DNA from: Nemertoderma westbladi
Taxonomy: Eukaryota; Animalia; Xenacoelomorpha
Direction: 5' to 3'
Length of the DNA stretch: 64,000 nt
Assembly (NCBI GenBank): GCA_032718475.1
Contig: JAUCBJ010008359.1
Coordinates: 8,275 to 72,274 of the forward strand
Shown here: positions 4,391 to 62,700 of the stretch, one piece after another
Position numbering within the stretch: position 1 is the stretch's first letter
Layout: the number at the start of each line of letters is the position of its first letter
Notes under the pieces: generated by a model
Told to the model about the DNA's origin: nothing
What the model saw: the letters and a program-made list of their open reading frames with translations, nothing else
The model's database searches: none
Program-made: the position numbers and the translations under genes

Positions 4391-4433
4391 ATCTGCTATC
4401 TGAGTTTATTAATATCAATATGAGTTAATATTT

Positions 4434-11989: not shown

Positions 11990-12515
11990 ACTAAACGCTG
12001 GCAGACTACTATCAAGCCTAAACAAACTACAGTATGTGCAGATTCTGAAACTGTTAGTTAGTATGCGTTCTAGCACGGTAGTACGACTTATTCTTTAAGA
12101 GGGGATTGACCTTACCGCATATGGCTGCCCCAACTTACTAACGGCACTTTATCAGACCAACTCTACACACGCAGCAATCCCTTCAGGCCTAAGAATAGCT
12201 AGACAACAATCTAGCCTACAAAATATCTGAGTAATAACTATTACGGTACCTGAACAGACCACACAAACAAACACAGGCTAAAACACTGGCAGACTACAAT
12301 CAAGCCTAAATAAACTACAGTATATGCAGATTCTGAAACTGTTAGTTAGTATGCGTTCTAACACGGTAGTACGACTTATTCTTTAAGAGGGGATTGACCT
12401 TACCGCATATGGCTGCCCCAACTTACTAACGGCACTTGATCAGACAAACTCTACACACGCCGTAATCTCTCCAAACTCAACACAGTCAGACAGCAGTTCA
12501 GCCTACAATTATTTG
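11990..12515. repeat. Internal direct repeat (~230 bp x2, ~290 bp period) in the long 5' leader
   Basis: ctggcagactac...cttacc.gcatatggctgccccaac...ctctacacacgc duplicated; also duplicated in element 2 (~38670-39190). Confidence 0.9.
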
Positions 12516-12798: not shown

Positions 12799-12811
12799 TA
12801 TAAACTGTTAC
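12799..12811 (-). promoter_or_regulatory. Non-tRNA primer-binding site GTAACAGTTTATA, complementary to its own LTR
   Basis: Abuts the 5' LTR end, lacks TGG, and is the exact complement of 13553-13565 and 1514-1526. Confidence 0.7.
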
Positions 12812-14011
12812 TGTTCGCGCTTTTGAAGACCTTTAGCAGTTTAACCTGCCAAAATTTATATGTCTTTTAGTTAATTAAAACACCTTTAGCATACGACAAT
12901 ATTTTATGCTAATACACAAAACATTAGCCGAAGTCAGCCCATGCGCGATCATTCACCCGATGGATCTACACCCGGGAGGCTGAATTCGGATGCTTAAATT
13001 TTATTATTGCAGTGTAAGGTTGCAGTGTAAACTTACTGTATTATTCGATAGATCGTTAATAATTAATTTCTGACAGATATTATTGGCTTTCGGGAAATAT
13101 TAACAGTTCCTTTAGGACGTGGCGCTCTATCTATTTAAACAGAACTAGGACTTATACTAAACGCAACGATACTGCTTATGATTAAAGTATAAAGCGCATT
13201 CTTTAGGAAATGCTTTGTTACCAATCACAATCATGCACACTATTCTGCCGACCGTCAGTATATTTGATCACACATAAAGAGAGCAGCAATTGACTCATGT
13301 AGGGTCTGCTAAATAACATTAGATTCAATACACACCACATTAATATAAATCGCAATTGTTATGTATAGCCGGTCTCTCTAACCTGTAGTGTATCAAGAAA
13401 ATTGGGAAATTTGGGTGATTTATCCGTATTCTCCAAAGAGCAATATTTCCATCAACAAATAGGTACAATTAATAACTGACGGTAAATAACAGTACAAACA
13501 ATATGATTAATAGTGAGTTAAGATTGATTAGTTAAGTTAAGATTCGTGGTAGGTAACAGTTTATACTTTCGATAATTTAAGCAGTTTTACTAGAGTTCTT
13601 CCCAAAAAGCCGGTGTTATGGCGAAAAATGGGAACACAACAACAGAATCATATAAAATCATATGACTACTACCACTATACGAGTATACCAAATACCCTTA
13701 TTCCCCGAAGCTCCCGTTCAACACAGAGGATGAGCATAGAGATAGGAAATTCAGTTCAGTAGCGCTGGGATAGGTCGAAATCAACGCCCACGCAAATTCT
13801 ATTGGCCGACACGGACAGCAAGGCTTAGGCAACCTCCCTACAGCTGGTTGGCCGATTAAACTGAGCCCAGATATCTCCACACAGCACATCAGCCAATAAG
13901 CTGGTAGCTTGCACTATTTTAGTTATAAATCCCTTTGAGAGTATTCTAGCGACCGGGGGGGAACTGGCCAGCAAAGGCAAACGTATCAGTTATCCCACAA
14001 AAGCTTTTACA
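12812..14011 (-). repeat. 5' LTR of element 1 (1200 bp)
   Basis: TGTAAAAGC...CGCGAACA in element sense; matches the 3' LTR. Confidence 0.95.
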
Positions 14012-37114: not shown

Positions 37115-38372
37115 TGTAAAAGCTTTTGTGGGATAACTGATACGTTTGCCTATGCTGGCCAGTTCCCCCCCAGACGCTGGAATACTCTAAAAGGGTTTTC
37201 TAACTGTAGATATATTCCCCTCGCCCGCAAGGTACCTTTACAGGTGTTTTAACGGACATAAAAGTAATTCTGCTATATACGTGTTTTAGCGGACATGGTA
37301 AGACAAAAAACTTGTAATGCACCAACCACCTTTCACAGCTTAGCCGTGATGATTCATATTACGACATCTAGCAGCTGGTTGCTGACATGGAAACAGCCAT
37401 TGGCCGCGTGGTTCTTTGTTTGGCTTGGGCCAATCAGGGCGGTTTTTCCTGTCGACGTGTAGCTTTCCTGCCGATCATAAGGAGAGTGTTCAGTCTTACT
37501 GTTTTAGAGTTGATACTTTGTTGTTATTGCTGTCTAAGCCAGAAACACCGGCATTTTTGGATAGATACTGCTGTACCGTAAACTGCTTGAATTATCGAAA
37601 GTATAAACTGTTACCGAACGAACTAATTTAACTTGATAATCATACTCATTAACTAATCTTGATACTTTTGCATTAATCATATTGTTTGTACTGTTATTTT
37701 ACCGTCAGTTATTAATTGTAAATATTTGTTGATGGAAATATTGCTATTTGGATAATACGGATAAATCACCCAATTCCCAATTTTCTTGATAACACTACAG
37801 GTTAGAGAGACCGGCTATATATAACAATTGCGATTTATATTAATGTGGTGTGTATTGAATCCAATGTTATTTAGCAGACCCTACGTGAGTCAATTACTGC
37901 TCTCTTTATGTGTGATCAAATGTACTGACTGTCGGCAGAATAGTGTGTATGATTGTGATTGGTAACAAAGTATTTCCTAAAGAATACGCTTTATACTTTA
38001 ATCATAAGCAGTATCGTTGCGTTTTAGTATAAGTCTTAGTTCTGTTTAAATAGATAAAGCGCCACGTCCTAAAGGAACTGTTAATATTTCCCGAAAGCCA
38101 ATAATATCTGTCAGAGATTAATTATTAACGATCTATCGAATAATACATTAGGTATACACTGCAACCTTACACTGTAATAATACAATTCAAGCATCCGAAT
38201 TCAGTCTCCCGGGTGTAGATCCATCGGGTGAATGATCGCGCATGGGCTGACTTCGGCTAATGTTTTGCGTATTAGCATAAAATATTGTCGTATGCTAAAG
38301 TGGTTTTAATTAACTAGAAGACACATAAATTTTGGCAGGTTAAACTGCTAAAGGTCTTCAAAAGCGCGAACA
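37115..38372 (+). repeat. 5' LTR of element 2 (1258 bp) with a replaced U3 segment
   Basis: TGTAAAAGC...CGCGAACA; ~37205-37540 does not align by eye to the element 1 LTR. Confidence 0.9.
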
Positions 38373-38385
38373 GTAACAGTTTATA
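38373..38385 (+). promoter_or_regulatory. Non-tRNA primer-binding site GTAACAGTTTATA of element 2
   Basis: Exact complement of TATAAACTGTTAC at 37602-37614. Confidence 0.7.
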
Positions 38386-40546
38386 ATCTTATTGCAGTAG
38401 GCAATAAGGTTGCAAACTACCGTAGTGACTGGTAAAACTGAACCGGTACTTTGTAGGTCAGTAGGCCTAACTGTCATCACCGGTACCGGTACTGCTGTAC
38501 AAGTACATTTAGTATTATTCGATTTGATTATTGTACACTGGTAGGTCTTAGTACTTAATCAGGGACTGCAGCCCTGAATTTTTATTGAGATTTTACCTAT
38601 TTCTGTCGGTTTTATTTCCTAGTAGGCTAATATTGAGCAGAAGGCGTGTGACCCTGCTCAGATTGTTCAGATAATTGTAGGCTGAGCTGCTGTCTGACTG
38701 TTGTTGAGTTTGGAGAGATTACGGCGTGTGTAGAGTTTGTCTGATAAAGTGCCGTTAGTAAGTTGGGGCAGTCATAACTGTAAGGTCAATCCCCTCTTAA
38801 AGAGTAAGTCGTACTACCGTGTTAGCACGCATACTAACTAACAGTTTCAGAGTCTGCATATACTGTAGTTTATTTAGGCTTGATCGTAGTCTGCCAGTGT
38901 TTTGGCCTGTGTTTGTTTGTGTGGTCTGTTCAGGTACCGTAATAGTTATTACTCAAATATTTGTAGGCTGGATTGTTGTCTAGCTATTTTTGGGTCTGAA
39001 GGGATTGCTGCGTGTGTAGAGTTGGTCTGATCAAGTGCCGTTAGTAAGTTGGGGCAGTCAACACTGTAAGGTCAATCCCCTCTTAAAGAGTAAGTCGTAC
39101 TACCGTGTTAGCACGCATACTAACTAACAGTTTCAGAATCTGCACATACAGTAGTTTGTTTAGGCTTGATAGTAGTCTGCCAGCGTTTGGTTTGTATTTG
39201 TTTGAGTATTCTGTACGGGTAGCGTAATATTTATTATTCAGAGTTTATGCGATTATTCGCAACATTCATGTCCCCAAGTTTATTCCTACAGTAATTGTGC
39301 TTGTTATACATACCGTTATAGTTAAACTAACCCCGGTACTACATCAGGGCTGCTTGGCGTAGGTAAAGACTGACGACTTTGTGCTTCGGTCACTCCAGCA
39401 GATGCCGTGGTTCTTTTAACTGTTCAAGTATATTTAACTACTGATTATTTGTTATACCGGTACTTGTACCTAATTTAGGGTTTAGAGTACAGTGCCTTCC
39501 GAAGTAATTAGTGTAGGCAGTATATTTGTGTTGTAAAGTGGTTGATAGGCACATTCGTTAGCTCTATTAGCTTCTGGGTAGGAACAATCCGTGATACATA
39601 ACGTAGTACCTATAGCGATACGGTTATAGGTCGTCAGGCGGTGGTATTTTCCTATCTGGACAGTACAATATATTTACTACTACTTATTATTTAAATACCG
39701 TAGTACCCTGTCCTTTGTAATAGCCAGAAATCTAACCCTTTGTTAGACTGGTTTGTAGACTTCCTGTAAAATTACCCTAAAAAATTTCGTACGTAATATT
39801 TTGTTGTGTTTAATTAGAGAATTAATCTCACCCGTATCGTAAGTAATTCGTAGTATTAAGTAACTTAGGTAAATTAGAATTATCAGTTTTAGTGTCAAAT
39901 AAATAGCACTTCACTGAGAGGCGTTCAGCTTCTGTGTAGTGACCCCCAGAAATAATAACATTTATTTCAAATATTGTCAAAACCCTTTTTAAACGGGTAT
40001 ATATCTATTATAAATCAACTCAAACGATTTATAAATAGTAGGCCTGCCATACAACAACTAGGTCTCACTATCAGTTGGACTACTGCTTAAATAACGGTAA
40101 TAAAGTAAGTTAAAGTAACGAAGTAACCCCAAAATATTCAGAAATTCAATTATTCTAAAAATAATTGACATACCGGTACTCATTATAGGCTTATTATATT
40201 TATCTCTATATATTTGAGCGGAAATCATACCGGTACTCTGTAATTAATTCTAGTTCATAATTATACTTACATGCTGTAAGTGTAAGCTGTATACCGGTAT
40301 TCATTATAGGCCTACTATATATATATATATTTGTGCTAAAATTATATACCGGTACTCTGTGACAAATCTAGTCTGTAATAATACTTATATATTATAAGCA
40401 TACCGGTATTCTAATATATTGTATATATATCACGTTCCACTGAGTAACGGTACCGGTAATAAATCGCTAGGCTTGCGGTCATACTGAATTACTCGATTTG
40501 CTTTAACTGAAATTATAGTAGTAGACATTCAACTGTATAACTAAAC

Positions 40547-43500
40547 ATGTCTGACACTCAGCAAAACCTGTCGGACAGTCTGATCGAGACCACTATCTGT
40601 GATTCAGATAGGAGTGTGGAGCGAATAAAAGAGAAGTTCGGCTCACCTCCTACTGTAAAAAAGGTCATCCCTCCAGTAGTATCAGACCCTAGGCTAGTCC
40701 ACCATAGGTCCATCATAGGCACTCGGGCACAGGTAAAACGGGACCAAGAGGCAGCTGTCCTATCGCAGCAACATCTTGGTCAAGAACCTACTTCCCAGAG
40801 ACCTGATAGCTCCAGCAGTTCGGATACTGTAGAGTTGACTCCCGAACATGGAGTGCAGATGGCTGATACAGTCTACTCGGACCCCCTTCTTACTCTTCCT
40901 GCTGCAGTGCTGACTACTATACTCATTGCGGTGGAAGAACATCAAACCGACTGGGCGAAGAATAAGCAAGCGACCCAAGATAATTACGCGGGATACGCCA
41001 GGGAAGAATTGAGATCTATTGTTGAAACACAATGGAACTTTCCCGGACTCGGACTTCCGTTTGATATGTCCGAGGCTACTTGGGAAGATATACACAGGAT
41101 GGGAGTGGCAAAAGATACAATGGATCCAGCTGTTTGGAAGAGGTCGGCAGCAGGATATGTGCAGGGATTCTTCGGATCCTTGGAGCGATTGGAGGAACAA
41201 CTGTTTCGACAACCTCACGGACCTCAAGAGCAGGAAGAACTGCTATATCAAATACGCGAAAGAACCCTACGCATTCGACTAATCCTCTCAGCCTTTGAGG
41301 AAACTTCCAAAAGAAGACAGGACACGTCGCTGCAGGTTGCTGTCAAAACTTGGCTACATCGAGTAGATCTCAAAGTACAGGAAACAGCCCCGTGGAAATC
41401 CCAGCTGGCTGAGAGATCAATCTATGAGGAACCGACTGATGTCTCCGAACAAACTGATGTCACCCTTGCTCAAGAGGAAAGCGAAGAGGCCGCCGAGAAA
41501 CCGCGAACTAGAGACGCTATCGACATTTATTTGTCCGACTATCAGCGATTCCTAGGAGACGAAGAGTTGAGGAGACGGCTACATGGACTTTCCCCTAATA
41601 GTGAAGGAACCAAGCTTGTGTTAGACTCAATCGATGCCGAAATGTTAGCTGCAAACCAAGCTGAATGTGATGAAAAACTCCGCCTCACTAGAGTCCGAGA
41701 AGAACAAATAAAGAAAAGAAGGATAGAGGAACAAAAGGCGGCGGATATGGCGGCAGTTATGGCAGAAGCAGAAGCCGAAAGAAAGGCAAGAGCAGCGGAA
41801 GCAGAAGCAGAAAGAAAAGAAGCAGAAGCCGAAAGAAAAGAAGCAGAAGCCGAAAGAAAGAAAAAGGCGGCGGAAGCAGAAGCCGAAAGAAAGGCAGCGA
41901 AGGCAGTGGCAGAAGTAGAAAGGAGAGCATCTGAGCAGACTACCCAACTGGAGTTGGAAAATCTGCAAGAGACACAAGACAGTATAAATAAACAGTTCAC
42001 TGCTAATCAAATGCAGATGATGAGAAAATCTACTCCCAAGCGCCAAGGATACACATCCTCGGAGGAAGGTGATACTACCGATCCTGAAGGCGGAGGAAAT
42101 AGATCTCATCTAAGTAGGCGTAGAAAAACATATTACCGTCGCAAATTGCCTGATTTGCCCCCAGCTGTTAAAAGACAGCTAACTAGCACAGATTTAGGTA
42201 GTGCAGAACCTATAGAACAATTTATCCAGGTCAAAAGACTCCCTACTATAGTCGATGAACCTGAAATAATTAGGCCTGTAATTCCCAAAGTCACTTCTAT
42301 GCTAGAGACCCCTGCACTTCCAGAGCTTAACTCTAAATTCCCTTTACATAGCACTACACTGCCTGTACCCGGTGGAACAGTCCATGCAAATACCCCTGTC
42401 CAGATAGCAGAGAGAGAAATCAATAATTTGTCTCCCGTCGTCCCGCGTCAGCCCGCTACTATGTTGGCGACTCCCGCTTCGGCGGTTGAGTGGGTGGAAG
42501 AGGGACGGCGGGGGATGAATCTTCTGCTAGGACAGATGCAGGAGACTGTCCACCAACTTAAGGGAACAGTGAGGGAAAGTAGAGCAGAGTTGCAAGAAGT
42601 GCAGCAAAGTATCGCGCTAGAACGCGACAAATTAGTCAATATACAAAAAGGCATACCAATGCCCCCGGTAACATTGAGTCAACCCGTTAGGTCTGAAGTA
42701 TCACATGCGCAAGGTGTGGAGCCTACACGCATCTATACTGCTAGTGAAGTTGAAACTCCTATAGCAAACCCTATTAAGGGTGATTATAGACCTGTTATTA
42801 ATGATATTCCCTATAGACCTGATAATGATCCGAGAAATTTGTATACCGATAATTCGATATTAAATAACACGATGGCCCAAGAAAGCTTTACGCGTCAGAT
42901 GGCTAGAACAGAAGCCCGCCAAGCGGTCAAAGTGGGAGAGATCGTCAAATTCAATGGAGATGAGATGAAATGGTTACCTTTCAACGAATATTACAAAGAT
43001 AGCATACAGAACTCTGTACTATCTAACGGAGAGAAACTTAGATTCCTCATCAAGTGCTTGGAAGGACCTCCCAAGTTAATGGCGTTAAAGTTTATTGGAC
43101 ATCCAGAAGGATTAAGACAAGTTTGGGATACATTAAACATCAGGTATGGTAACAAAGATAACATAGCTAAGTATTTGTATACAAAGTTAGTACCCCCCCG
43201 ACACTTCCTTAGTAGCGAGATTATAGAGTTTTCCGATGAAATTCAAGAGATCTGTAGACAACTGGACTGGTTAGGTAAGTCGCATGAATATCAGAGTTCC
43301 ATGGTTATTGGAGCCGTAGTCTCTACTTTACCAAAGGGTGGAGTATGTACACGCTGGGACAAGAAAGTGTTGTACATGAATGAACAACAACGACGAAGTC
43401 CTACCATGGCTGATCTCATGTCTTTCTTAGATAGTGAAGTAAAATTACAACTCATAAGGCAGTCCAGAGAGAAAACATCGGAAAATAAGGTAAGTGAGAA

Positions 43501-44212
43501 ACCCGTTTCTAGGAGAAGGATAATACCAGTGTGCTATACTGACGACGGCGAAAGCCAAGCTTCTCAAGAAGAGGACAGCGGGAAAGACACAGCAAAATCT
43601 TACTATGACAACAAGACCTATAAAGACGTAAGTAAATACAAGTCTCGAACCAGTGACAGGAGAGAACAGGTAACAACAACTCCTCCTACGTCTCCTAAGA
43701 GAATTCACGGAAGAAAGCCCGAAGAAAGAACGAGAGTGCAGAACGTTAACCAAGTTAAGGTGAGTAACATCAAACCAAAATGTGCGCTGTGCGACGGGCC
43801 TCACCGTTTGAGTGCGTGTGCTGAATTTCTAAAGAAATCCCCTGTAGACAGACGTACAGTCCTGTGTAATAAGCGGCTATGCTATAATTGCCTCAGATCA
43901 GGACACCAACGGCGAACCTGTTACTCCGACGTAAAGTGTGCAAAGTGTGGCGCGAAACATCACATCTTGTTACACAGTGAGTTCGAACGAGACAACCCGA
44001 GTCAGGTAAGTGAGCCCGAACTACATGTCCAATTCAGTGATGTGAACGACACTGACCAAGGTTCTGAGTGGGAAGGATTCTATACAGACGAATTCTCCGA
44101 TGCCAACGAATCCTGTTATCTAATAAATACCACAGTGTATCGAGCACTTACGGATGAAAAGGACACTGATGAGTTTACTCCAACTCCTTTTGACAAAAGG
44201 ACAAAAGCTTAG
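40547..44212 (+). CDS. gag: BEL/Pao Gag (1221 aa, open but C-terminally truncated)
   Basis: Ala/Glu/Lys coiled-coil repeats, DUF1759-like domain, CALCDGPHRLSAC / CYNCLRSGHQRRTC / CAKCGAKHHILLH. Confidence 0.9.
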   Translation: MSDTQQNLSDSLIETTICDSDRSVERIKEKFGSPPTVKKVIPPVVSDPRLVHHRSIIGTRAQVKRDQEAAVLSQQHLGQEPTSQRPDSSSSSDTVELTPEHGVQMADTVYSDPLLTLPAAVLTTILIAVEEHQTDWAKNKQATQDNYAGYAREELRSIVETQWNFPGLGLPFDMSEATWEDIHRMGVAKDTMDPAVWKRSAAGYVQGFFGSLERLEEQLFRQPHGPQEQEELLYQIRERTLRIRLILSAFEETSKRRQDTSLQVAVKTWLHRVDLKVQETAPWKSQLAERSIYEEPTDVSEQTDVTLAQEESEEAAEKPRTRDAIDIYLSDYQRFLGDEELRRRLHGLSPNSEGTKLVLDSIDAEMLAANQAECDEKLRLTRVREEQIKKRRIEEQKAADMAAVMAEAEAERKARAAEAEAERKEAEAERKEAEAERKKKAAEAEAERKAAKAVAEVERRASEQTTQLELENLQETQDSINKQFTANQMQMMRKSTPKRQGYTSSEEGDTTDPEGGGNRSHLSRRRKTYYRRKLPDLPPAVKRQLTSTDLGSAEPIEQFIQVKRLPTIVDEPEIIRPVIPKVTSMLETPALPELNSKFPLHSTTLPVPGGTVHANTPVQIAEREINNLSPVVPRQPATMLATPASAVEWVEEGRRGMNLLLGQMQETVHQLKGTVRESRAELQEVQQSIALERDKLVNIQKGIPMPPVTLSQPVRSEVSHAQGVEPTRIYTASEVETPIANPIKGDYRPVINDIPYRPDNDPRNLYTDNSILNNTMAQESFTRQMARTEARQAVKVGEIVKFNGDEMKWLPFNEYYKDSIQNSVLSNGEKLRFLIKCLEGPPKLMALKFIGHPEGLRQVWDTLNIRYGNKDNIAKYLYTKLVPPRHFLSSEIIEFSDEIQEICRQLDWLGKSHEYQSSMVIGAVVSTLPKGGVCTRWDKKVLYMNEQQRRSPTMADLMSFLDSEVKLQLIRQSREKTSENKVSEKPVSRRRIIPVCYTDDGESQASQEEDSGKDTAKSYYDNKTYKDVSKYKSRTSDRREQVTTTPPTSPKRIHGRKPEERTRVQNVNQVKVSNIKPKCALCDGPHRLSACAEFLKKSPVDRRTVLCNKRLCYNCLRSGHQRRTCYSDVKCAKCGAKHHILLHSEFERDNPSQVSEPELHVQFSDVNDTDQGSEWEGFYTDEFSDANESCYLINTTVYRALTDEKDTDEFTPTPFDKRTKA

Positions 44213-44375
44213 CTTAGCTTAGCTTAGCTTAGCTTAGCTTAGCTTAGCTTAGCTTAGCTTAGCTTAGCTTAGCTTAGCTTAGCTTAGCTTAGCTTAGCTT
44301 AGCTTAGCTTAGCTTAGCTTAGCTTAGCTTAGCTTAGCTTAGCTTAGCTTAGCTTAGCTTAGCTTAGCTTAGCTT
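44206..44375 (+). repeat. (TTAGC)n perfect pentamer array, 34 units
   Basis: Direct reading. Confidence 0.98.
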
Positions 44376-46534: not shown

Positions 46535-46978
46535 CACCTCCATGCAGCATAAAGGAGGTGCCACCTGTAGCTGCATAGACCCTCTTACTAGGGCATATCT
46601 GGTCCTGTAACTAGGACCCCCTTCGTTCTGGGATAAGGACGCCCTTGGTCCTGGATTAAGGACCCAAATACTTGGCTGCAGGGGTATATGGCCTGACCAG
46701 GCAGATGGTGATCTACTAATGGCTGGTCAGGAGTAGAGTGTTCTCATGTCCACTCTGAGAGCACTTCACTGCGACCTGCACCTGGCAGCAAGGGTACAGG
46801 GCATGACCCAGCAGATGAGCTGCAACAGCCAATGGTGGGTCATGTGCGCCAGAGTAGATATGGGTGATGGGCCTCATATCTGACTCCATTGCGACACCCA
46901 CCCTGTGGAATGGCAAACCAGGGTGTGGTATTTGCCCCGAGAGCTGACTCGGCAAAAAAGCACCCCCCAACCCCCACT
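46535..46978 (+). promoter_or_regulatory. Densely structured GC-rich RNA leader (IRES-like)
   Basis: About 10 consecutive hairpins, then a C-rich tract directly before the ATG at 46979. Confidence 0.6.
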
Positions 46979-48754
46979 ATGGATTACATTAGCAATGCGA
47001 CCACTTTCAAATCCCACTTTAAGCAGCAAGCGTTAGTGTATTGGAACATCTGCACGCCACCCTGTGCGTTGCTGCAATATTATTTGGTGCTGGAGTCGAA
47101 CACGGTAACTTGTTTAGTCGCGGATATTGTTGCGCAAGTTTTGAAGCGTCATCCATTGGTGTTCGGAGGAGATCAATACGTTCGCTCGAAAGGGGGAATC
47201 CAATCCGACGTGATGAAGCATTTCTTAACCCCGTTCTTCAACCAATCGCTAGAAAACACGTCGATGGTTAGGAGAGGATTAGCAATATTCGAAGGAATAT
47301 ATCGACAGAACATCGGAGATTTGGGAGACCGACCGTTGATGGAGTATCCGACGCCAGAGGCCTTGGAGAAGTGGTTCGGGAATCAAACCCGCAGGTTTGG
47401 TACTCCCGTCCACTTAGAGGCGGATAGACCCATTAGAGAGGGTTGGCCGGAGACGTTAGTGGAGGTGTTCGGAGTGGATCTCCCGGTGGAGAAGACATAT
47501 CCGAAACGAACGCGGGAGGAAATATTGGAGATAGAGGACAAAGGCGAGGATGTTTACTTTGTTCTGGATCGACAACCTCTGACTGGAGAGGATGATATCG
47601 TTTTAGACATTGGGAAGGAAGGGAGTGCGAAGCCGATTGGAGACCTCATATATGAAAGGGCCTGATTTCCACAAGTGCGTAGATGCAAGTTGTGCGGCAG
47701 CACAAGGCATAGTCAAAAGTCGTGCGACGCTGTAGTAGAGGCGGAGCATAAGGTTTGTTGTTGGTGCAACGAGACAGATCACTCATTCCATACGTGCACC
47801 GTCTTCATTTCTCAATGTGGATATTGTGGGGTAAAGGGACATCGTAGTGCGAAATGTCAACTACGTGATGATTCTTTCCAAAACCATAGCACCAACCTAC
47901 TCCGGGAAATGTTAGACAAGTGGGAGGGTGTGGCTGATTACCACAACCAAGCGCAAATGCGGTGGTTGCCGTTTAAAGCAGGATACGGGTTCTGGGCGGT
48001 AGATCCATCACACGTCGCATATGAACCGTATTTGCAATCTCTACCATAATATCAGGAGCTGATACTAACCGCTCAAGACCTTCCGCAGAATACTGGAGTT
48101 GTAGTTGTCAGATCATACTTTAGACAGTTGAACATGGACAATAAGTATACTTGGAACTTTGTTGCTATTTGCGACAGTATAACCAAAGGTTTATTTTTGG
48201 AGACGAGGAAGGTGGTGCGCGCGCGAGGAGATTGGAGGATGGCGGCTATACAATACCGCAATGAATTTCTGTTGACTCACGTACCGGTGGGGTCATTGAC
48301 CGCCGAACGAATAGAGGAGCAACGGACCGCGGCGCCCACAGCGACAACAGCCGGAGCTCACAGCTCGCGGCAAGTACCAGAAGGAGGAGTCCTAGACAAG
48401 CATCAGGTCAAGGACGAGCACTATCATTCGATAATTGAAGCTCGACGACTGCAGCGGAGGGCACAGGGGGCGTCCGAAAAGGCGCGCGTGCAACTGCAGA
48501 AAGAGGAGCTGGCGGAGGCGACCACGGGAACACGGCAAATGGGACGAGGCCGAGGGGGAGTACCAGCCGAGAGACAGCCGGGGCCCAGGGAACATCGTCG
48601 CCGGCTCCGGGAAGTGATACCTCACGGACGCCGTCATCTGAGTCCACAGGAGGAAGACTGGTGTATCTGGGGAGGGGGCGAAAGAGGGGAGCAAGCCCAA
48701 AGAACCCAGGAGCGAGCCGATAATACGATAGTATCATGGAGCGACAGACTCTAG
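46979..48754 (+). pseudogene. Accessory triple zinc-knuckle ORF (~590 codons) of a third, distantly related LTR element; two in-frame stops (47663-47665, 48047-48049)
   Basis: Track ORFs starting at 46889, 47675 and 48128 are all in one frame; three CX2CX4HX4C knuckles; colinear similarity to 2308-4390. Confidence 0.75.
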
Positions 48755-48949
48755 ACATATACATCATCGTCGCTCTGATGTATATCGTAGGTTTTGGTAA
48801 AACGATCGACTGGACTCATATACACTAGTCATATTCATTTTAGAGTTTTATATTATGAGAGAGGCGAAGGAGGTGACTGGGGAGACAAACCTGTGGGTTT
48901 GGCTTACTCCTTTCACCAGCCCTAGCCAGGGTTTTTTATTAAGTAGACC

Positions 48950-49145
48950 GTCAATTTGTAAATGAAAGAGCAATATTTTTGTAAATTGTATGTAGTAATC
49001 ATTATGTAGTATGAAAGGGAAAGCAATATTTTGTAAATTTAATTTGTATTTAGTAATCATTATGCAGTGAGAGAGATAATATTTTTGTAAATTTAATTTG
49101 TATGTAAAACCATTATGCAATATCTATGGCAATATTTGTAAATAT
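48950..49145 (+). repeat. Degenerate ~55-bp tandem repeats in the 3' UTR of element 3
   Basis: caatattttgtaaatt...tgtat.tagtaatcattatg x3-4. Confidence 0.7.
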
Positions 49146-49266
49146 TAGAACTATTATAGTACCAAGTTATTTAGATTATTTGAAAGTAAATTTTATTTTG
49201 TTTGTTTACATCGCCCTATATTCTTCTACAATTGGAGGGAAACATTGCTTGTTTCCCTTGGAACGG

Positions 49267-50039
49267 TGTTACGATACTGTTATCAGCCCATTATACAGTA
49301 TAGATATTTAGATAAGCCATAATGATGCGCAATCATATTTAGATAAGGAAAATAAAATATCCATATTCGTAAATCTTATCCATTTTGTATAGTATGTAGC
49401 CCTACCTATGTAATTTTGTAATAAAATATAAATAAATAGTTTTACGGTAGCAAGTTTCCTATAAAAACCTTGATGCAAGCTTGCTGTTATTGGGAGTAAT
49501 CGGATTAATCGTATATTTGCATTAATTTCCGTTATATTTGCGCTAAATTAGATTGTATGTACCGTGCTTTGAATATCGCGAAATTAAGTAACGCAACCAT
49601 TACCATATATGGTAATAATTTGTGATTCTAGGAGCCATTAGGTTCACAATCCGGCTTCCTTATTGCCCTAGCTGCTTCCAGGTTGGTCTAATGGTAGCGC
49701 GGATTGGGGAACCAATGAGAGGATTATTGCATCATCCTTTATGAATCACCTATAAATTGGCTGTATTTCCGGTATGTGCTATCCATAATCTATCTCTGTT
49801 AATCTCAATCTCAGTATAATCTCAGTATTTGTTTCTTGCAATAATTCGTAATTATTTGTAATTTCTGATTTAAATTCTTTGCTGTGTTTCTCAATCGATC
49901 TTGATGGTTACTGCAAATTACAATTTCGAACTATGATTTCTACCCCTTTGATTAATAGTTCTATATGATTTAAGATGCGATAATCCCACGGGATTTTCTT
50001 TAGACTGTCAGACTGTTTGTAATTGCATGCACCGCTACA
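49267..50039 (+). repeat. Candidate 3' LTR of element 3
   Basis: Starts TGT after GGAACGG (element 1 has GGGAGCGG|TGT); CCAAT near 49712 and TATAAA at 49751; plausible ..ACA end. No partner LTR in the window, so the right boundary is uncertain. Confidence 0.45.
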
Positions 50040-50171
50040 GTAGCTATTCGTTGTAATGGTGGGCTAAGGTACCGGTAGGCGCGGCGGGCGCACCGGGGGG
50101 TAGCGACGAAGGGAGTGCGGAGGATTCAAAATGGGCAATGCTGGCGGGGGGTCACCGTTGCGGCCGGGGGT

Positions 50172-50250
50172 TAAGCTAAGCTAAGCTAAGCTAAGCTAAG
50201 CTAAGCTAAGCTAAGCTAAGCTAAGCTAAGCTAAGCTAAGCTAAGCTAAG
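50172..50250 (-). repeat. (GCTAA)n array, ~16 units
   Basis: Direct reading; reverse complement of (TTAGC)n. Confidence 0.98.
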
Positions 50251-51443
50251 TACACCAATATTAGATATTGAGTTCCGTTTTGGAGTTCGCCTTGCAGACA
50301 CTAAAGTTGCAATAACTTTTGAGACCGTGCATGGATTTGGCTCAAATGACTTGCAAACCTTTTCTACGCCGATGCTCTTTTACCACATGTAATGTGGTGA
50401 AATGTGGTGAAAACCACATATTTATAAGAAATTCCACCAAAAATAGTTTAATTTACTTTTTTCGCAGGGAAAAAAGTAAAATCAATGCAATCTTACGGGT
50501 TACTATTTTCCTTAGGGAAAAAAGTTTAACTTTTTCTCCCGATTTTGGGGTACTTTCGAGCGAAAAAGGTAACAAATTAAGAAAATATATTTATATTTTT
50601 TTTGCGGTGGTAATTATAATAGTAATTAATAATTATATATAATTATAATAGTAATTGACAATATGCAATCATAATATCGGCTCAAAAAATTTCAGGCAGC
50701 AACCCTATTGTTGCAACTAAATATTAATGTTTAAAACGAAGTAGTAGGCTACTAACAGTACTTTATAAAAGTTTACAAAAAAATTCAATTCAACAAATTA
50801 TCGTTTTAATCATTTGAATTGAATTCTACGTTTTTTTTTAAATCCAATTTTAATCCAGTTCTTAATTATTGTACTCAATACGATAGTTTTAACAATATCC
50901 ATTTCATCATGCTATCAGTAACAATGACTCTAAAGAAAGGCATTCATTCATACCTAACTGTCGTTCTATCGTGACATTTTTTATTCTGTTCTATCCTGTA
51001 ATTATTGCTAAATATAGCTCCACACCTACTGTATCTATTTTGCCTTTTACTTTGTAGCGTTGACCGCGATGAGATATCGCACTGCTGCCCGTGGGTTTTC
51101 GTCTCTTTTTTCATTTAGTTAGGAAATTGACAATTTTGAATACAGTTAGTAGTCAGTAGTGTAGTACCAGTATAATAAAACAATAAATAAATATTATATT
51201 GAAATTTAAACAAAGATAATTCAGAAAGGCCTTTTACCATAGTCAAAGTATTCCTACTCTCTGACTACCAGTGTTATAGTGCAATTAATTTTCCCTCTTT
51301 CACTGTATTAAACTGCTACCCTGTTACAAGACAAAACAGTTTCGTGGTGTTACTGTATGGACCATCTTAACCCTGCGTGCCGCCCATCTGAAGAATACCA
51401 GGATTTCACTTTTCGGTCGACTTTTTATTGGAATTTTATATAT

Positions 51444-53150
51444 GGCACGTTCCACGATAACGTCAACCAAGGGCTCATTTCTAAAAGTTAGGTATTGTTG
51501 GCTTTTGTGAACTTTTACTAGATCGAAATTTATCGCAGAATACAAATCTGAAACTATAAATCTCAAATTTATAAATTTTAGTATCGTAAATTGCTCTGGT
51601 AGCTGGTGCGTTAAAATTTCAATTTTTTTGTCAAAATTGGAGACATTTTGTTTTTTGAAAATTTGATACAATGCAATACAGTTTTGCTATTTTCAGCCTT
51701 TTCAGATGGAATATATACATTTTGGGAATGCAATGCCACGTTGTTCATGATCTAAAACGAGTTGACTGACTAATACTTTTGATTTTTGCATGAGGCAATT
51801 TGAATGTCACGTACTTTACCAAAAATATGTATTATTTTATTTTATAAAGTCAAATTTAGCTCCAAGGGAACTAAAAGTGGAATCTACAATATTAAAGTAT
51901 ATTTACATGTTTTGTGTTGAACATTTCTCGAAAATTCTGTGCTTTTGACACATTTACAATGGTAAAGTACGTGACGTAAAAATATTTTTTCGTAAAGTAC
52001 GTGACATAAAAATATTTTTTCGTAAAGTAGGTGACGGTTGTATGGACTATAACTGACCACTTAAGCAGTGCCAGCGCATCACACACTGTGAATCCTGCCC
52101 ATCAGGCCACCTGGAGCTCGGCGTCTATTGGATGACAACTCTATCCACCTGCAACTGAAGCCTGCAAAACGATATAACATATGTCTCTACCAGATCAGGG
52201 TGGGGTGATATAAGTCCATTTGTTATGAACTATTGTTTCCCCAGAGACAACCAATTAAATATTATCAATAATTGCTAACGCGTGCATGGCCCATGGTTAA
52301 TGAGATGACAGCAACATTTTCCCAAGGTCTTAGTGGTTCTAATTAATTAGAAACGTGCCAGTACCATAGCGCGTAGCGGTAACCTCGACACAGATAGAGC
52401 TAGGGCCGTAGCAACGTCATCAAAAATAAGCAATCCACCATCAGCTATACGAACTGCGACTACTGCACAATAAAAAAGACAATACATGATATCACCAGTG
52501 TGTGTAATAGCGAAACACGGACTATAATAACCGTAGGCCTACCCCTAATATTAGTTAATCAAAATTTTATTATTATTTTCAATCACCCGGTCTTTAAAAA
52601 TATGATAGAATCTGTATCTAGTTAATTTCGTTACCAAATTGGATTGTAAAAACATATTGCCGCATGGAAGCGGGGTGAAATAGATTTGGATATTCGGATG
52701 AAATCGCATGGGTCACGTACTTTACTTGGCAATGTCACGTACTTTACTTGGCAATGTCACGTACTTTACTTTGTTTTACATCAAATTCACTGAATTGCGT
52801 TAGGTTTGAAATGTCAATAAAGGCTGTTTTGGAAACAGCAATATTACCTCTTGGCTGCTGTGGACTCATTTATTACCTCAAGGTGCTCAATTCGCTGGAT
52901 TTTGGACTTACATTAAAAAAAATATATTTTAAAATTTCTGCGCGTCACGTACTTTACCTGCGTTTGGTTGATGATTACTAAAGCCATCTACACTAAGAAG
53001 TTTAGCTTCTATACTAAACGTGTAGCAGAATACTTTGTCTCTCAGAATATCACAAGTTGATGCTCTATGAAGACTGTTGTATATATGTAATTTGCAAAAG
53101 AATGTAAAAATTGGTCTCTGACAGTCACGTACTTTACCGTGGAACGTGCC
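51444..53150. mobile_element. Non-autonomous DNA transposon, 13-bp TIR GGCACGTTCCACG, 4-bp TSD ATAT
   Basis: TIRs are perfect; the empty site is seen in copy 2 (~55126); internal tcacgtactttac motifs occur in both orientations. Confidence 0.92.
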
Positions 53151-53259: not shown

Positions 53260-53936
53260 AGCTAAGCTAAGCTAAGCTAAGCTAAGCTAAGCTAAGCTAA
53301 GCTAAGCTAAGCTAAGCTAAGCTAAGCTAAGCTAAGCTAAGCTAAGCTAAGCTAAGCTAAGCTAAGCTAAGCTAAGCTAAGCTAAGCTAAGCTAAGCTAA
53401 GCTAAGCTAAGCTAAGCTAAGCTAAGCTAAGCTAAGCTAAGCTAAGCTAAGCTAAGCTAAGCTAAGCTAAGCTAAGCTAAGCTAAGCTAAGCTAAGCTAA
53501 GCTAAGCTAAGCTAAGCTAAGCTAAGCTAAGCTAAGCTAAGCTAAGCTAAGCTAAGCTAAGCTAAGCTAAGCTAAGCTAAGCTAAGCTAAGCTAAGCTAA
53601 GCTAAGCTAAGCTAAGCTAAGCTAAGCTAAGCTAAGCTAAGCTAAGCTAAGCTAAGCTAAGCTAAGCTAAGCTAAGCTAAGCTAAGCTAAGCTAAGCTAA
53701 GCTAAGCTAAGCTAAGCTAAGCTAAGCTAAGCTAAGCTAAGCTAAGCTAAGCTAAGCTAAGCTAAGCTAAGCTAAGCTAAGCTAAGCTAAGCTAAGCTAA
53801 GCTAAGCTAAGCTAAGCTAAGCTAAGCTAAGCTAAGCTAAGCTAAGCTAAGCTAAGCTAAGCTAAGCTAAGCTAAGCTAAGCTAAGCTAAGCTAAGCTAA
53901 GCTAAGCTAAGCTAAGCTAAGCTAAGCTAAGCTAAG
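53260..53936 (-). repeat. (GCTAA)n perfect array, ~135 units
   Basis: Direct reading. Confidence 0.98.
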
Positions 53937-55579
53937 TACACCAATATTAGATATTGAGTTCCGTTTTGGAGTTCGCCTTGCAGACACTAAAGTTGCAATA
54001 ACTTTTGAGACCGTGCATGGATTTGGCTCAAATGACTTGCAAACCTTTTCTACGCCGATGCTCTTTTACCACATGTAATGTGGTGAAATGTGGTGAAAAC
54101 CACATATTTATAAGAAATTCCACCAAAAATAGTTTAATTTACTTTTTTCGCAGGGAAAAAAAGTAAAATCAATGCAATCTTACGGGTTACTATTTTCCTT
54201 AGGGAAAAAAGTTAAACTTTTTCTCCCGATTTTGGGGTACTTTCGAGCGAAAAAGGTAACAAATTAAGAAAATATATTTATATTTTTTTTGCGGTGGTAA
54301 TTATAATAGTAATTAATAATTATATATAATTATAATAGTAATTGACAATATGCAATGATAATATCGGCTCAAAAAATTTCAGGCAGCAACCCTATTGTTG
54401 CAACTAAATATTAATGTTTAAAACGAAGTAGTAGGCTACTAACAGTACTTTATAAAAGTTTACAAAAAAATTCAATTCAACAAATTATCGTTTTAATCAT
54501 TTGAATTGAATTCTACGTTTTTTTTTAAATCCAATTTTAATCCAGTTCTTAATTATTGTACTCAATACGATAGTTTTAACAATATCCATTTCATCATGCT
54601 ATCAGTAACAATGACTCTAAAGAAAGGCATTCATTCATACCTAACTGTCGTTCTATCGTGACATTTTTTATTCTGTTCTATCCTGTAATTATTGCTAAAT
54701 ATAGCTCCACACCTACTGTATCTATTTTGCCTTTTACTTTGTAGCGTTGACCGCGATGAGATATCGCACTGCTGCCCGTGGGTTTTCGTCTCTTTTTTCA
54801 TTTAGTTAGGAAATTGACAATTTTGAATACAGTAAGTAGTCAGTAGTGTATACCAGTATAATAAAACAATAAATAAATATTATATTGAAATTTAAACAAA
54901 GATAATTCAGAAAGGCCTTTTACCATAGTCAAAGTATTCCTACTCTCTGACTACCAGTGTTATAGTGCAATTAATTTTCCCTCTTTCACTGTATTAAACT
55001 GCTACCCTGTTACAAGACAAAACAGTTTCGTGGTGTTACTGTATGGACCATCTTAACCCTGCGTGCCGCCCATCTGAAGAATACCAGGATTTCACTTTTC
55101 GGTCGACTTTTTATTGGAATTTTATATATGAAGATTTTTTATTTTTTTTATTTTATCTTTAAGTGTTTTATAGCGCTTATTTCTGTCTTATAACCTGTAC
55201 ATATACTAATTCGTTTATTGTTTTGGTTAGATTCAGCCCTTCTGTAACCTGTGGTTTTGGTGAAAACCTGGTATTCTTCACATGGGGGTAACTGCAAAGT
55301 GAAATATAACGGTAGAAAGTCTGGTATTCTTCACATGGGGGTAACTGCAAAGTGAAATATAACGGCAGAAAGTCTGGTATTCTTCACATGGGCCCTGCGT
55401 GCACCTATTGGTGCGATTTGCACCGACTCAAATATTGTCTGGGAGGGTGTCCCAACCCCCATGTAATCGGCCCTGGTAATAACTAGAGTTCGTTCTGATT
55501 TGGTCTTATTCCTTTAGTTAATAACTGACTGCACAATCTCCGGTAGCTATACTGTACAAGCGCAGTGGCAGCGTAGAGG

Positions 55580-58502: not shown

Positions 58503-59778
58503 GAAGCTATCGAATGAGGAGCTTTAGGGTCGTGGTTGCCTCCGGCAACGATCCACTGTTTACTTGCTTTTCTATGCAATGACATTAGAACAACAGGAGT
58601 ATACATAGTGACAATGTTATCTATAGCAACCCCGTAAGTTATAAAATCAATAGTGATAATGTAAGTCCTGAGCCAAAATATATTAATATTTATTAAACAT
58701 TTTAATTAATGGGTTTCTTAGCCAAGAATTATAGTTTGATATTGATTGGAATTTATTATGCTGGGCGTATGCGAGTAATTCACAATTGTTTTCGTTTCAA
58801 CCAATATATAAATTTATTAATTAAGGTTGGAAATAAATGATTTACATTTCAAAAGCAAACACATACATACTTACTGTACTTATGCATTTTGTAGCTTGCA
58901 ATGAAATTAATATAATGTAATTAAGAAGTGTTACTGTACCAACTGTAGTGAAAGTATCTTCATGGTCAATATCATCATTACAGTAGATAGAGATATATTT
59001 ATTATATTTCAGTTTCAGTTTATTTATTTATTTCAGTAATATATATATAAAGTACATACAATATACATAACAAAAAAAAATTACAATCAAAATTTACATA
59101 TTTACAAACAGCTAAATTACCTCGAAATAAGTGCCGGAGCGTTAAGTTTTAAAAGTAATGTGAAATTAAAATTTAACTAGGTAATAGTGAAAAGGGCAAC
59201 ACAGCAATATAGCAAAGCTATTACGTGGCTGTGCGCCGTTTAGAAGGTTATTGACGATTTTAATACAGTGTACGTATTGTGTTTATTAGAATTACTACCG
59301 TATACGTTATATATAATTAAATTTAAAGCACTGCGTGGAAATATATGAATACATAAAAGTGACGATCCATCTGTACGTGGGCACGACATTTGAATTAAAA
59401 ATTACACACAAGGAGCAAAGTTAGAAATAAATTAAACCCAAATTATAAGTGGATAACAGAATAGACAACAACGTTAATATTACTAGCCGTTAGAGACACC
59501 ACAATGAAAAAACTAACAAAGCACCAGACATATACCCCGCAGTTACAGTTCAATAATTAAATATTTTTTTAGTTTAGCAGAAAATATGTTTAATGATTGA
59601 CACTCTTTAATTTAAATATGCAATAAATTCCACAAAAAAGGACCCTGATATTTTAGTGATCTTTGAGATACAAGTATACGAGTTGATGGAATATAGACAT
59701 TTTTTTGGCTTATTGTTCAAAAAGTGATACATGCAACATGAAATTCTAAAATATATTTCGCAATACTAATCTTCTCTC

Positions 59779-62700
59779 ATGGCAGAGGCAATGAAGACTG
59801 ATGGAGATGTAGAAGAATACGCCTTTAAAAATGTACAGACGCCAATTCCAATAGAAAATACATCAGACGACCAGACTACTGCACCGAAAAACCCAACTAC
59901 CACAGCACAGAATCAGAGCACAAAAGCGGAGAAACATAATACTGTACTGGAGAAAACATCAGTGGGTTCTATAAATCAACAACAAGGTACACTGAAAAAC
60001 CTTACAAATTATACTAAAGATGTCTATTCAAGTAAAGTAACCCAAAGCAAACAGGTTTATCTAACGGGCAAGAGATATGGAAAACAGGTCTATAGTAGTG
60101 GAAAATCAAAAATGAAAGAAAGCAACACATATCGAAGAGGCCATGCACACTCAAATCAATTTGAGAAACACAGAAACAAGCCTTCATGGGTTCCAGAAAT
60201 ATTGTCATCCTTTTGGCGAAGGGGAAGCGTTGCCGCTTCAGAAGCCAGTGATATGCAACAGATTGAAAACTGGTACCTCAATAATGAACTTTTAATAACT
60301 TGTGAACAACAGAGGCCAGAAGAAGTGGGGCAATTGTTATCAAAAGGAGCAAACGTGAATGCAATCGATGACTATGGTTGGTCACCACTAAATAGGGCTC
60401 TGAAGGCGGGCGAATTAGATACTGTTAGATTCTTGATACAAGGTGGAGCCGATGTAAATAAGAAACATGAGAGATGGCTTTCTACACCACTGCAGACTCT
60501 ACTTTACTACAGAGATGATGTAAATATGCTCGATTTACTATTCGACGCAGGTGCGAAAGAAACTGTTGGCAATGTGGACAATGAAGGCTGGAATGCACTT
60601 CACATCGCAAGTAAAAAAGGTCGCTTAGAATGTCTTAAAAAAATAATAAGCAAAGATTTAATGTTTTATGCCACCACTGATGAGGCAAAGAGAACCATTT
60701 TACATTTAGCCTGTTATTGTGGAAATGTTGATGTCATAGAGTTTGTTTTAGATTTTTCAAGCGGTCTGTTTATTAGTCAGATATTTTTTGATGCACTTGG
60801 CCAGACACCAGCTCATTTAGCTTGTATCTATGGCCATATTGCTGTTTTGAAAGTAATGATCTCTCATGGGTTGCCATTTGACTGTGTAAATAAAGCCAAT
60901 GTTACACTTTTACACACAGCAGCTCATTATGGACATGATAACATAGTGGATTGGTTACTTAAAGACTGTCCACAATTAATTGTGTGTCAGGATGAGGAAG
61001 GCAGACAACCTCTCTGGGTCGCCAGCCATAGAGGACATACAAAAATTGTTGAGATGTTGCTTGGGTGTGGCGCTGATACAATGGCATGTGATAAAAGAGG
61101 TCGAACAGCTTTACATATTGCATCTATTAAAGGAAATGACAGTGTTTTAAATGCCTTATTGCCATTACTAAAAGACAAGCACCATGCATCTAGGGTTGAT
61201 AAGAGAACCAATGATGGTCGAACAGGACTCCACTATGCCAGCAAGGGTGGTCATACATCAACTCTTATAAAAGTTCTAGATCATGGTGCAAATATAAGTC
61301 AGACAGATAACGATGGCAATACAGCACTGCACTTTGCATTTATGTTTGATGCACCAGCGAGTTTAATGGAACAACTCTTAGATAGAGGAGTGAATACAGA
61401 GGCACGAAATACATCAGATAAGACAGCTCTTGATATCGGCATAGAAAATGGAAATTTCCATCTTATTGTTAACTACCTAATGCACCGAGGGAACAATGCT
61501 TCTTTGGCATCTTTGTCACCTTATTTATTGAAAGGAATGTGTAGGTCTACTAGCTGTCAAGATTGGGAAACCATCTTCAATAAATGCATAAAGTTACAGG
61601 ATGTTGAACATGATGATACGATGATGAACATTGGTGAATCACGCCTTGGTAAAGACAGGTGGGTCACAGTAGACATTGATCTGCTGAAACCGCAATCCAA
61701 AAAGTCAGCCATCTCTGAAACATCGACTTCAGGACACTTCGAAAGAAGTGAGGAATTCTTTTTGAGGAAATGTGAACTTGCCCCTTTGCAAATGATCACC
61801 ACCAAATCTGATAACATTGTTTTATTTAATCATCCTTTTGTCACATCTTTAATTGAAATGAAATGGCATCGCGTTGGATCGATATATAATATACTTGTCA
61901 TTCTTCTGTTTTTCCATCTAGTCACGCTCTGTTGTCACGTTGTAGCAACATTGCATTATCTTGAAGAATTACCCAATCTTAAACTCAACAATTTCACACT
62001 ATATGACATAAGTTGGTGGTTTCTATTCTCTACATCCATTCTAATGACACTAATAGAATTTATACAATTTTCAGTGGTAAAAATGTTTCAGTACCTTTCA
62101 GATCTTGAGAATATTTTAGAATGCGGTCAAATATTGTTATCTATTTGGTTACTACTCATGCCTTTTACACATTTTACGTTAGTCAGAGAAGTGAGTGCCA
62201 TTGCAATAGTGTTTAGCAGTGGTTCATTTACATTATCTGGATCTAAAATTAAAACTTTGGATATTGGAGTCTTTATTATTATCTTCCGGAAGATTGTTAA
62301 CCGTTTGCTACGGACTACATTCTACTTCATGTTTATAATTGGATCATTTGGAGCCGCATTGCATATACTATCAATGAGTGGGCAAGACAACATAATTAGT
62401 TCCTTGTTTAACACTTTAGTTTGGTTTTCTGCGGGAGTTGAGTACCAAGATGAAAATTTAAATACGAAATATGGAGCATCTCATTTCCTATTTCTGGTTT
62501 TCCTTCTTCTAGGACCCATCGCTTTGATGAATCTCCTTTTAGGTTTGGCTGTTAGCGATACAAAGATAATCCTACATGAATCAAAAGCCTATTGTGAAAA
62601 ATCTCGTCTCGAATTTATTATCGAAATTGAACGTGTAGGTTTGCGGTTAAGAAAGATTCCAGTGCTGAGACGTTTACATCGACGGATCCAGTTGTTTGTT

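Follow-up and report, generated by a model that had tools for sequence, protein, structure and literature searches.

How a retrotransposon of BEL/Pao descent starts reverse transcription when it lacks a tRNA site is the question raised by this locus. The ICTV describes Belpaoviridae as primed by a host tRNA, which pairs with an 18-nt primer-binding site (PBS) for tRNA-Arg or tRNA-Gly (PMC8742986). The whole stretch of DNA analyzed here (64,000 nt, referred to as the window) contains two copies of one LTR retrotransposon family, in opposite orientations. Directly past both 5′ LTRs there is no TGG; the same positions hold an exact complement of a 13-nt segment found inside the LTR itself. We consider it probable, judging from sequence comparisons, that the family would prime its minus-strand DNA with an LTR-encoded piece of its own RNA and not with a host tRNA. 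The main support for this reading is covariation between PBS and LTR in the sequences of distant BEL/Pao loci, beyond the window.

Two defective copies of a BEL/Pao-derived family

Element 1 extends on the minus strand from 14011 to 760, between two copies of the target-site duplication (TSD) ACTTG (14016–14012 and 755–759). The LTR ends were set by this duplication together with an alignment of the three LTRs present in the window, which places the 5′ LTR (1200 bp) at 12812–14011 and the 3′ LTR at 760–2229, the latter adjoined by a purine-rich candidate polypurine tract (PPT; 2230–2241). The gag–protease region (6019–10663) is read in two frames (10663–8804 and 8925–6019), past which there is just a short remnant of the RNase H end, reverse transcriptase (RT) and integrase being absent. 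Extra 3′ ORFs occupy 2308–4405 on the same strand (4405–3683, 3849–3304 and 3303–2308); their sole Pfam signal is a weak zinc knuckle in the last ORF, and none gave an env-like Pfam match. The 3′ LTR also carries a later SINE-like insertion of ~258 bp (at ~2205–1953) with an (AAT)n tail, flanked by a 5-bp duplication, TAACT.

Element 2, on the plus strand, retains a 5′ LTR of 1258 bp (37115–38372, TGT...ACA) and a Gag ORF (40541–44212) with a Cys/His cluster, and ends at about 44200 in a 5-bp repeat array, upstream of the protease. The domain DUF1759 (PF03564) is present in Gag of both elements (E 2e-12 and 5e-12), and the aspartic protease match (E 0.006) lies below the cut-off. Profile A2, built from 30 BEL-type polyproteins, matches the window element at 3e-85; in element 1 the match covers columns 170–689 (Gag, protease) and 1234–1300 (RNase H end), skipping columns 690–1233, with none past 1300. 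Protein hits of the window element carry PF05380 and PF18701.

Both copies belong to a BEL/Pao-derived family and neither is an intact member. The LTRs have the features of BEL/Pao elements (lengths of 1200 and 1258 bp against 0.2–1.2 kb for the group, TG...CA ends, a purine tract and a 5-bp TSD), and the family shares with the Belpaoviridae of the ICTV its LTRs, PPT, Gag with DUF1759 and a Cys/His cluster, aspartic protease and RNase H-end motif. Unlike Belpaoviridae, the window copies have extra 3′ ORFs and no RT or integrase; the BEL/Pao order RT–RNase H–integrase is absent, element 1 being without RT and integrase and element 2 stopping within Gag. We class them as a BEL/Pao derivative that is either non-autonomous or truncated.

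The host carries the family in repeated form: across DNA runs from three studies, thousands of contigs, rich in variants, match the LTR, a depth that does not translate into copy number. Elements 1 and 2 represent two subfamilies, which have both LTR ends and R/U5 in common and differ in U3 cores that cannot be aligned (37206–37543, plus strand, versus 13920–13620; 184 of 302 columns differ), with a CCAAT box at 37428–37434. This is an apparent swap of promoter or enhancer, and both U3 types occur in the DNA runs. The 2.2-kb leader of both elements contains a tandem pair of ~288-bp units, 87% alike (38667–39240; 11938–12508).

The window holds several further features. A third, distant LTR element is left as a 3′ remnant without a 5′ part (46868–50171); its LTR, which begins at 49267, contains CCAAT and TATA boxes. 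The Cys/His ORF of this remnant shares 29% identity with the extra 3′ ORF of element 1, an ORF type common to two divergent elements of the same genome. Perfect (TTAGC)n arrays occur at 44206–44375, 50172–50250 and 53260–53936; one is plus-strand and the other two are minus-strand. They truncate element 2 within Gag, as well as the LTR of the third element, and the minus-strand arrays head a 1274-bp duplication (50172–51444, 53858–55130). These arrays look like telomere-type additions at breaks or like a repeat-targeting mobile element. Adjoining the 5′ end of element 1, the segment 14390–20292 consists of three tandem copies of a 1.97-kb unit, >99% identical. One open frame of 1164 aa (59770–63264) encodes ankyrin repeats and a TRP-channel-like part, with relatives just 24–29% identical.

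A 13-nt complement at the LTR edge

The candidate self-primer, TATAAACTGTTAC, lies in the 5′ LTR of element 2 at 37602–37614 (plus strand); it starts with a TATA-like hexamer, and its 3′ C is the would-be priming end. It recurs on the minus strand in both LTRs of element 1, at 13553–13565 (5′ LTR) and 1514–1526 (3′ LTR). The primer-binding position GTAACAGTTTATA, its exact complement, directly follows the 5′ LTR of element 2 (38373–38385, plus strand) and, in identical form, that of element 1 (12799–12811, minus strand). The preliminary description had reported these sites, the missing TGG and the register at the LTR edge, and all were verified: with the edge fixed by the TSD and the three-LTR alignment, the complement starts 0 nt past the terminal CA, and in no copy does pairing extend into the LTR end.

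The 13-mer and its complement together have five matches in the window against 0.29 expected (0 of 100 shuffles). When the complement was anchored to the leader at offsets 0–3, dinucleotide shuffling of the two LTRs (3000 shuffles each) produced a 13-nt match twice and once, respectively. Judged by the self-priming criterion used for other elements (an LTR complement of at least 10 bp, 0–5 nt past the 5′ LTR), both copies have 13 bp at offset 0. An 18-nt tRNA-complementary PBS is absent, the earliest TGG being at leader base 58. This TGG was considered as a cryptic tRNA site and is excluded, since priming there would add bases at the right end, where the TSD fixes the LTR edge.

On its 5′ side the 13-mer closes a conserved block (37581–37615, plus strand), and on its 3′ side begins an indel-rich, low-complexity stretch (37615–37670) that starts at the predicted cut and would contain the start of R and the strand-transfer zone. 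The indels downstream of the 13-mer had been noticed before and are confirmed, with 6 indels and 9 substitutions separating the elements and 4 indels separating the LTR pair of element 1. The invariance of the 13-mer, claimed alongside them, is nothing special: the 13-mer is the end of a 26-nt invariant block, and with R/U5 differing at just 28 of 698 bases, chance alone would leave 13 bases unchanged in about half of all cases. Three-LTR invariance was for this reason discarded as evidence.

At the family level, no change at ≥1% is listed for 37581–37614 in three DNA runs (241, 102 and 11 contigs), although short contigs hide changes close to their ends; about 2 variable places would be expected there from the 114 of 1801 found overall. 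This lack of variants weakly supports conservation of the 13-mer. Contig cover collapses past 37615–37617 because the copies diverge there, and family conservation stops at the predicted cut. One low-depth contig repeats the LTR-end/PBS segment (window 38367–38415) with 35 other letters between, and one 734-bp contig represents a roughly 85% identical subfamily and extends to the PBS.

Besides the 13-bp helix, U5 carries one 12-nt and two 10-nt complements of the leader. The U5 arms (38135–38180, plus strand) are predicted to pair with leader arms within 38389–38523 (38135–38146 with 38512–38523, and 38160–38180 with 38389–38414), nesting around the PBS and enclosing it, with pairing probabilities of 0.5–1.0 in both elements. 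The fold of 38125–38535 has z = −6.2 (0 of 100 shuffles). A duplex test of U5 against leader was marginal (15 of 300 and 36 of 300 shuffles) and gave a clear pass in just one of nine relatives. In the nested minimum-energy fold the primer–PBS helix has probability 0, because it would be a pseudoknot to the U5–leader arms, and the 3′ half of the 13-mer pairs with 37961–37967. This competing helix was set aside as no better than shuffles (z 0.1 and −0.35). Opening both sites is predicted to cost 5–12 kcal/mol against −13.9 kcal/mol for the primer–PBS duplex (loop cost excluded), which leaves annealing net favorable by −2 to −9 kcal/mol (loop cost again excluded).

Covariation in distant BEL/Pao loci

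A 15-sequence BEL polyprotein alignment led to 19 loci in animal-looking contigs inside prokaryote assemblies, and 18 further regions came from searching 10 of those assemblies for the family. Among these 37 loci, 20 have a usable LTR–leader junction; the other 17 (L049, L051, L054, L058, L059, L061, L063–L065, L102–L105 and L111–L114) were dropped. Animal-type BEL/Pao contigs occur in at least 10 prokaryote species assemblies, three of them in a single chromosome record (G009:C1). Pairing of the leader with the own LTR was scored as a contiguous match or as a match across a GT–AG intron, at offsets 0–5.

Eight loci (L060, L097–L101, L108, L109) have the TGG site expected of Belpaoviridae, unlike the window element, and pair with their own LTR over just 0–7 nt; L097 has its TGG at the LTR edge, lies outside the self-type clade and is counted here. 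Within this tRNA-type set, L098–L101 are BEL/Pao elements measuring ~13 kb, in which gag and pol occupy separate frames and 5.5–6.5 kb lie between pol and the 3′ LTR.

The self-type group comprises twelve loci (L047, L048, L050, L052, L053, L055–L057, L062, L106, L107 and L110), 11 of which pair over 10–11 nt with their own LTR at offsets 0–5 (0–7 of 1000 shuffles each), in letters specific to each family. Pairing is contiguous in L047 (11 nt, 0 of 1000 shuffles) and L053 (10 nt, 7 of 1000). In nine others (L048, L050, L052, L055, L056, L057, L062, L107 and L110) 11 nt are reached only across a canonical GT–AG intron (0–3 of 1000 shuffles). L106, a decayed copy, scores 8 (50 of 1000 shuffles), with 10 of 11 positions pairing across an intron by eye. 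The LTR-internal introns of these nine loci and of L106 measure ~75–1020 nt and come from several unrelated assemblies. L110 has a TGG at +1, yet shows the 11-nt junction match and is placed in the self-type clade.

For L048, L052, L053, L055 and L056 a single LTR served to infer the LTR end, and in four cases it was picked as the best of 8–15 CA candidates, which inflates the significance of those loci. The counts also include near-copies (L055/L057, L050/L107 and L098/L099); independent families number about 10 of the self type and about 6 of the tRNA type.

When every LTR was matched with every leader in a 12-by-12 cross test, the diagonal values were 10–13 in the 11 self-type rows, and off-diagonal values did not exceed 10 except in same-family pairs. 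In the sister families L050 and L107 two of three exon-end letters differ, and the PBSs differ at exactly the two partner letters; read at the sequence level, these are two compensatory changes. Compensatory change between PBS and LTR, proposed in the preliminary description as a check, is thus seen among distant relatives, L050/L107 included, and none was observed inside the window family. The window PBS opens with GT, and so does the PBS in 11 of 12 relatives, with GT falling within the first 6 bases of the leader.

The distance from primer end to LTR end is 44–153 nt in nine relatives versus 741 and 758 nt in the window elements. A TATA box lies 41–240 nt upstream of the paired segment in four of nine scanned relatives, and AATAAA, where present (five of nine), follows the primer. 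With TATA upstream and AATAAA downstream, the primer would lie in the 5′ part of the RNA and not at its first base. The two sources of primer suggested earlier, the transcript 5′ end or a processed 3′ end, are modified accordingly by the relatives' TATA positions: the primer probably derives from within the 5′ leader and, unlike in Tf1, need not comprise its first bases.

In an RT–RNase H tree of 20 rows, one branch (97) splits eight self-type from six TGG-type rows (0 of 500 label shuffles); as kin share labels, this split shows that one origin is possible, not that there were many. The window element, having no RT, was placed by Gag–protease alone. Its Gag and protease are nearest to self-type loci (up to 25% versus 14–21%), and it is 18–25% identical to all rows of the Gag–protease comparison. 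In the Gag–protease tree (21 rows) it sits on a long branch outside the starred self-type clade (95/97). The covariation in distant loci favors the self-priming proposed in the preliminary description. The independent origin in the window lineage attached to it is the weaker part: a whole other clade has the signature, and placing the window element as sister to that clade, though not recovered in the tree, costs just 0.56 log units (p-AU 0.43). Self-priming is likely not peculiar to the window lineage, as far as these sequences indicate. The self-type clade may be linked to Suzu or the Sailor lineage, a guess from the hosts.

Compared with its self-type relatives, the window element pairs over 13 nt and not 10–11, has no intron across the primer and has a longer path to the LTR end. 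Its contiguous match resembles those of L047 and L053, the intron form being found in 10 of 12 loci (L106 included). It is likely either an intron-less form of the relatives' splice-junction primer or a parallel invention. There was no close protein relative among 1.8 billion representatives, the best being 24–38% identical over matched stretches. A metagenome contig scan with the LTR-end/PBS 18-mer gave 46 loci, none related to the window element, and viral contigs gave 9 and 49 candidate stretches, none confirmed as relatives.

Precedents, proposed mechanism and competing readings

Tf1 primes with its own first 11 bases after RNase H cleavage, as laid out in the priming passages of PMC7175516, a primer close in length to the 13 bp of the window family. 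Like the window family, Tf1/Tf2 of Schizosaccharomyces pombe, Tf1/sushi and Tcn1 (Ty3/gypsy) have no tRNA site and carry within the LTR a short perfect PBS complement that is in register with the LTR edge. A folded U5–leader domain around the PBS, a trait of the Tf1 group, is predicted for the window element, where the duplex test was marginal; cleavage is demonstrated in Tf1, whereas in the window element it would follow by analogy. The proteins differ as well, being of the Ty3/gypsy (chromovirus) type in Tf1/sushi and BEL-type Gag and protease here. In our assessment the window element quite probably works in the manner of Tf1 without being a Tf1/sushi member, as a BEL/Pao derivative that departs from its group in the tRNA-PBS feature.

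The preliminary description named self-priming as established in Tf1/Tf2 and related Tf1/sushi Ty3/gypsy elements. By the 10-bp criterion, self-priming has been predicted for Tcn1 and, outside Ty3/gypsy, for Copia TAR elements (Houba, Osr-1), with a complement of at least 10 bp 0–5 nt past the 5′ LTR; these are plant Ty1/copia, and the primer sections of that study describe no splice-junction primer (PMC6317226). A further origin is, with this prediction in Copia TAR, less surprising than the preliminary description assumed. Cer7 is said to be a BEL-type element encoding its own tRNA-like primer, a different mechanism.

Fungal GalEa Copia elements and bivalve TRIMs have no tRNA site and a hairpin past the LTR, and a 10-bp local hairpin is possible in the window too (38389–38409); the relevant passages report no LTR complement for them, whereas the window complement is exact (PMC5445492, PMC6934838). 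The belief that self-priming is unreported in BEL/Pao agrees with the literature covered, in which we found no BEL/Pao report of self-priming or of a splice-made primer; a precedent may exist in Repbase entries or subscription journals. Term look-ups found no discussion of primer sites in the main BEL/Pao survey (PMC3118150), the Sinbad paper (PMC554778), the mollusc survey (PMC6238403) or the annelid survey (PMC8220671). Passages on self-priming in PMC3601003, PMC5445492, PMC6934838 and PMC5443660 name it just for Tf1-type elements or a hypothetical ancestor.

We hypothesize the following course for the window family. Transcription would start at the 13-mer or up to ~190 nt upstream of it, and the 5′ RNA segment would fold over onto the PBS, held in the loop of the predicted U5–leader helices. 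The RNA would be cut just past the C at 37614; the cutting enzyme would, by analogy with Tf1, be the RNase H of the element (PMC7175516, priming passages). RT would extend the primer end through U5 to the cut, so that 37615 would be the first base of R; strand transfer between the short repeats of the indel-rich stretch beyond would explain the indels there. As element 1 lacks RT and integrase, both would be needed in trans, from an intact family member absent from the window. An intron upstream of the cut would be copied from the 3′ LTR and could persist, and splicing of the 3′ copy would give the contiguous form of L047, L053 and the window family.

Several points weigh against self-priming by the window family. 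The covariation comes from elements just 18–25% identical to the window element, which the Gag–protease tree places outside their clade and which differs from them in match length, intron and primer distance. The window family itself showed no compensatory change, and the U5–leader duplex test was marginal. In addition, a pattern scan for TATA-like sequences at the 13-mer or upstream hit just the TATAAA that opens it, so the 13-mer may belong to the promoter and be missing from the 5′ end of the transcript. Were this hexamer a TATA box, with a start near 37632 and the 13-mer in U3, the primer would come from the 3′ RNA copy, or that of a second packaged RNA, cut past the C; this would still be self-priming, from the 3′ end. 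The hexamer does sit at the switch from variable U3 to conserved R/U5, has no further TATA-like hit upstream, and finds a counterpart in the related partial element, where a TATA box is followed by a similar low-complexity stretch (49749–49830), but the LTR alignment to that third element is insignificant (score 50 versus a shuffle maximum of 53). At 172 and 240 nt upstream, CCAAT is too far from the hexamer for its usual spacing to TATA, and the two bases past TATAAA fit the TATA consensus poorly. The would-be start region is full of indels, and the paired segment of TATA-bearing relatives is downstream of that box. We regard such a promoter as improbable. Still less likely is a pairing that is real but structural, acting in packaging, dimerization or translation control while another primer is used. 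Although the region has further long-range helices, and the primer–PBS helix is missing from the nested fold, where 37961–37967 takes up the 3′ half of the 13-mer, that helix is a pseudoknot the program cannot show and the competing fold is at shuffle level. The start of pairing coincides with the LTR edge in the window and lies 0–5 nt from it in 12 relatives, pairing is absent where a TGG site is present, and the TSD ties priming to the LTR edge, ruling out the TGG at +58.

A host RNA ending in the 13-mer (a tRNA half, spliced-leader RNA or other small RNA) might prime instead, the LTR copy being chance or a captured relic. The last seven bases of the 13-mer, on our own reading, which we take as no more than a resemblance, look like an Asn anticodon loop, and half-tRNA primers are described for Copia lineages in the primer sections of PMC6317226. 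The chance of the LTR copy is nevertheless ~1 in 2000, the relatives' PBSs vary by family and track their own LTR or splice junction, and there is no tRNA gene in the 64-kb window and no Rfam match at the LTR; a host primer seems to us very unlikely. The least likely of the readings is that the window primer is itself spliced, a weak donor past base 8 of the 13-mer being joined to an acceptor at 37800 or 38338, which would yield 12 matching nt and shorten the path to the PBS. Both acceptors are kept in all three LTRs, both exons would begin GTTA, and a 730-nt intron would give a short last exon like the relatives'. However, such a donor, GTTACC, departs from the canonical donors that every spliced relative has, and the unspliced match is longer. 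The longer intron would also delete the U5 arms of the predicted helices and be lost in the first copying round, and the DNA-run rows listed contain no GT–AG joint and no intron-bearing loose end.

Returning to the internal leader primer, we lean, with less confidence than in self-priming as such, towards a wider scenario. A large BEL/Pao branch would have dropped tRNA priming for an internal leader primer, mostly splice-assembled from an LTR intron, so that splicing would license reverse transcription; the window family would be an intron-less, long-U5 offshoot or a second origin, mobilized in trans. The reading yields precise predictions of the cut site and the R boundary, and suggests a rule for annotation, namely to seek a 10–13 nt complement in the LTR or at an LTR junction. 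If true, it would account for the many aquatic BEL/Pao elements that PBS searches overlook, and would add a third LTR superfamily with self-priming, unlike Tf1 in using an internal leader segment, often a splice junction. BEL/Pao elements of this kind would be freed from tRNA supply and from tRNA-fragment silencing, and their replication would be tied to host splicing.
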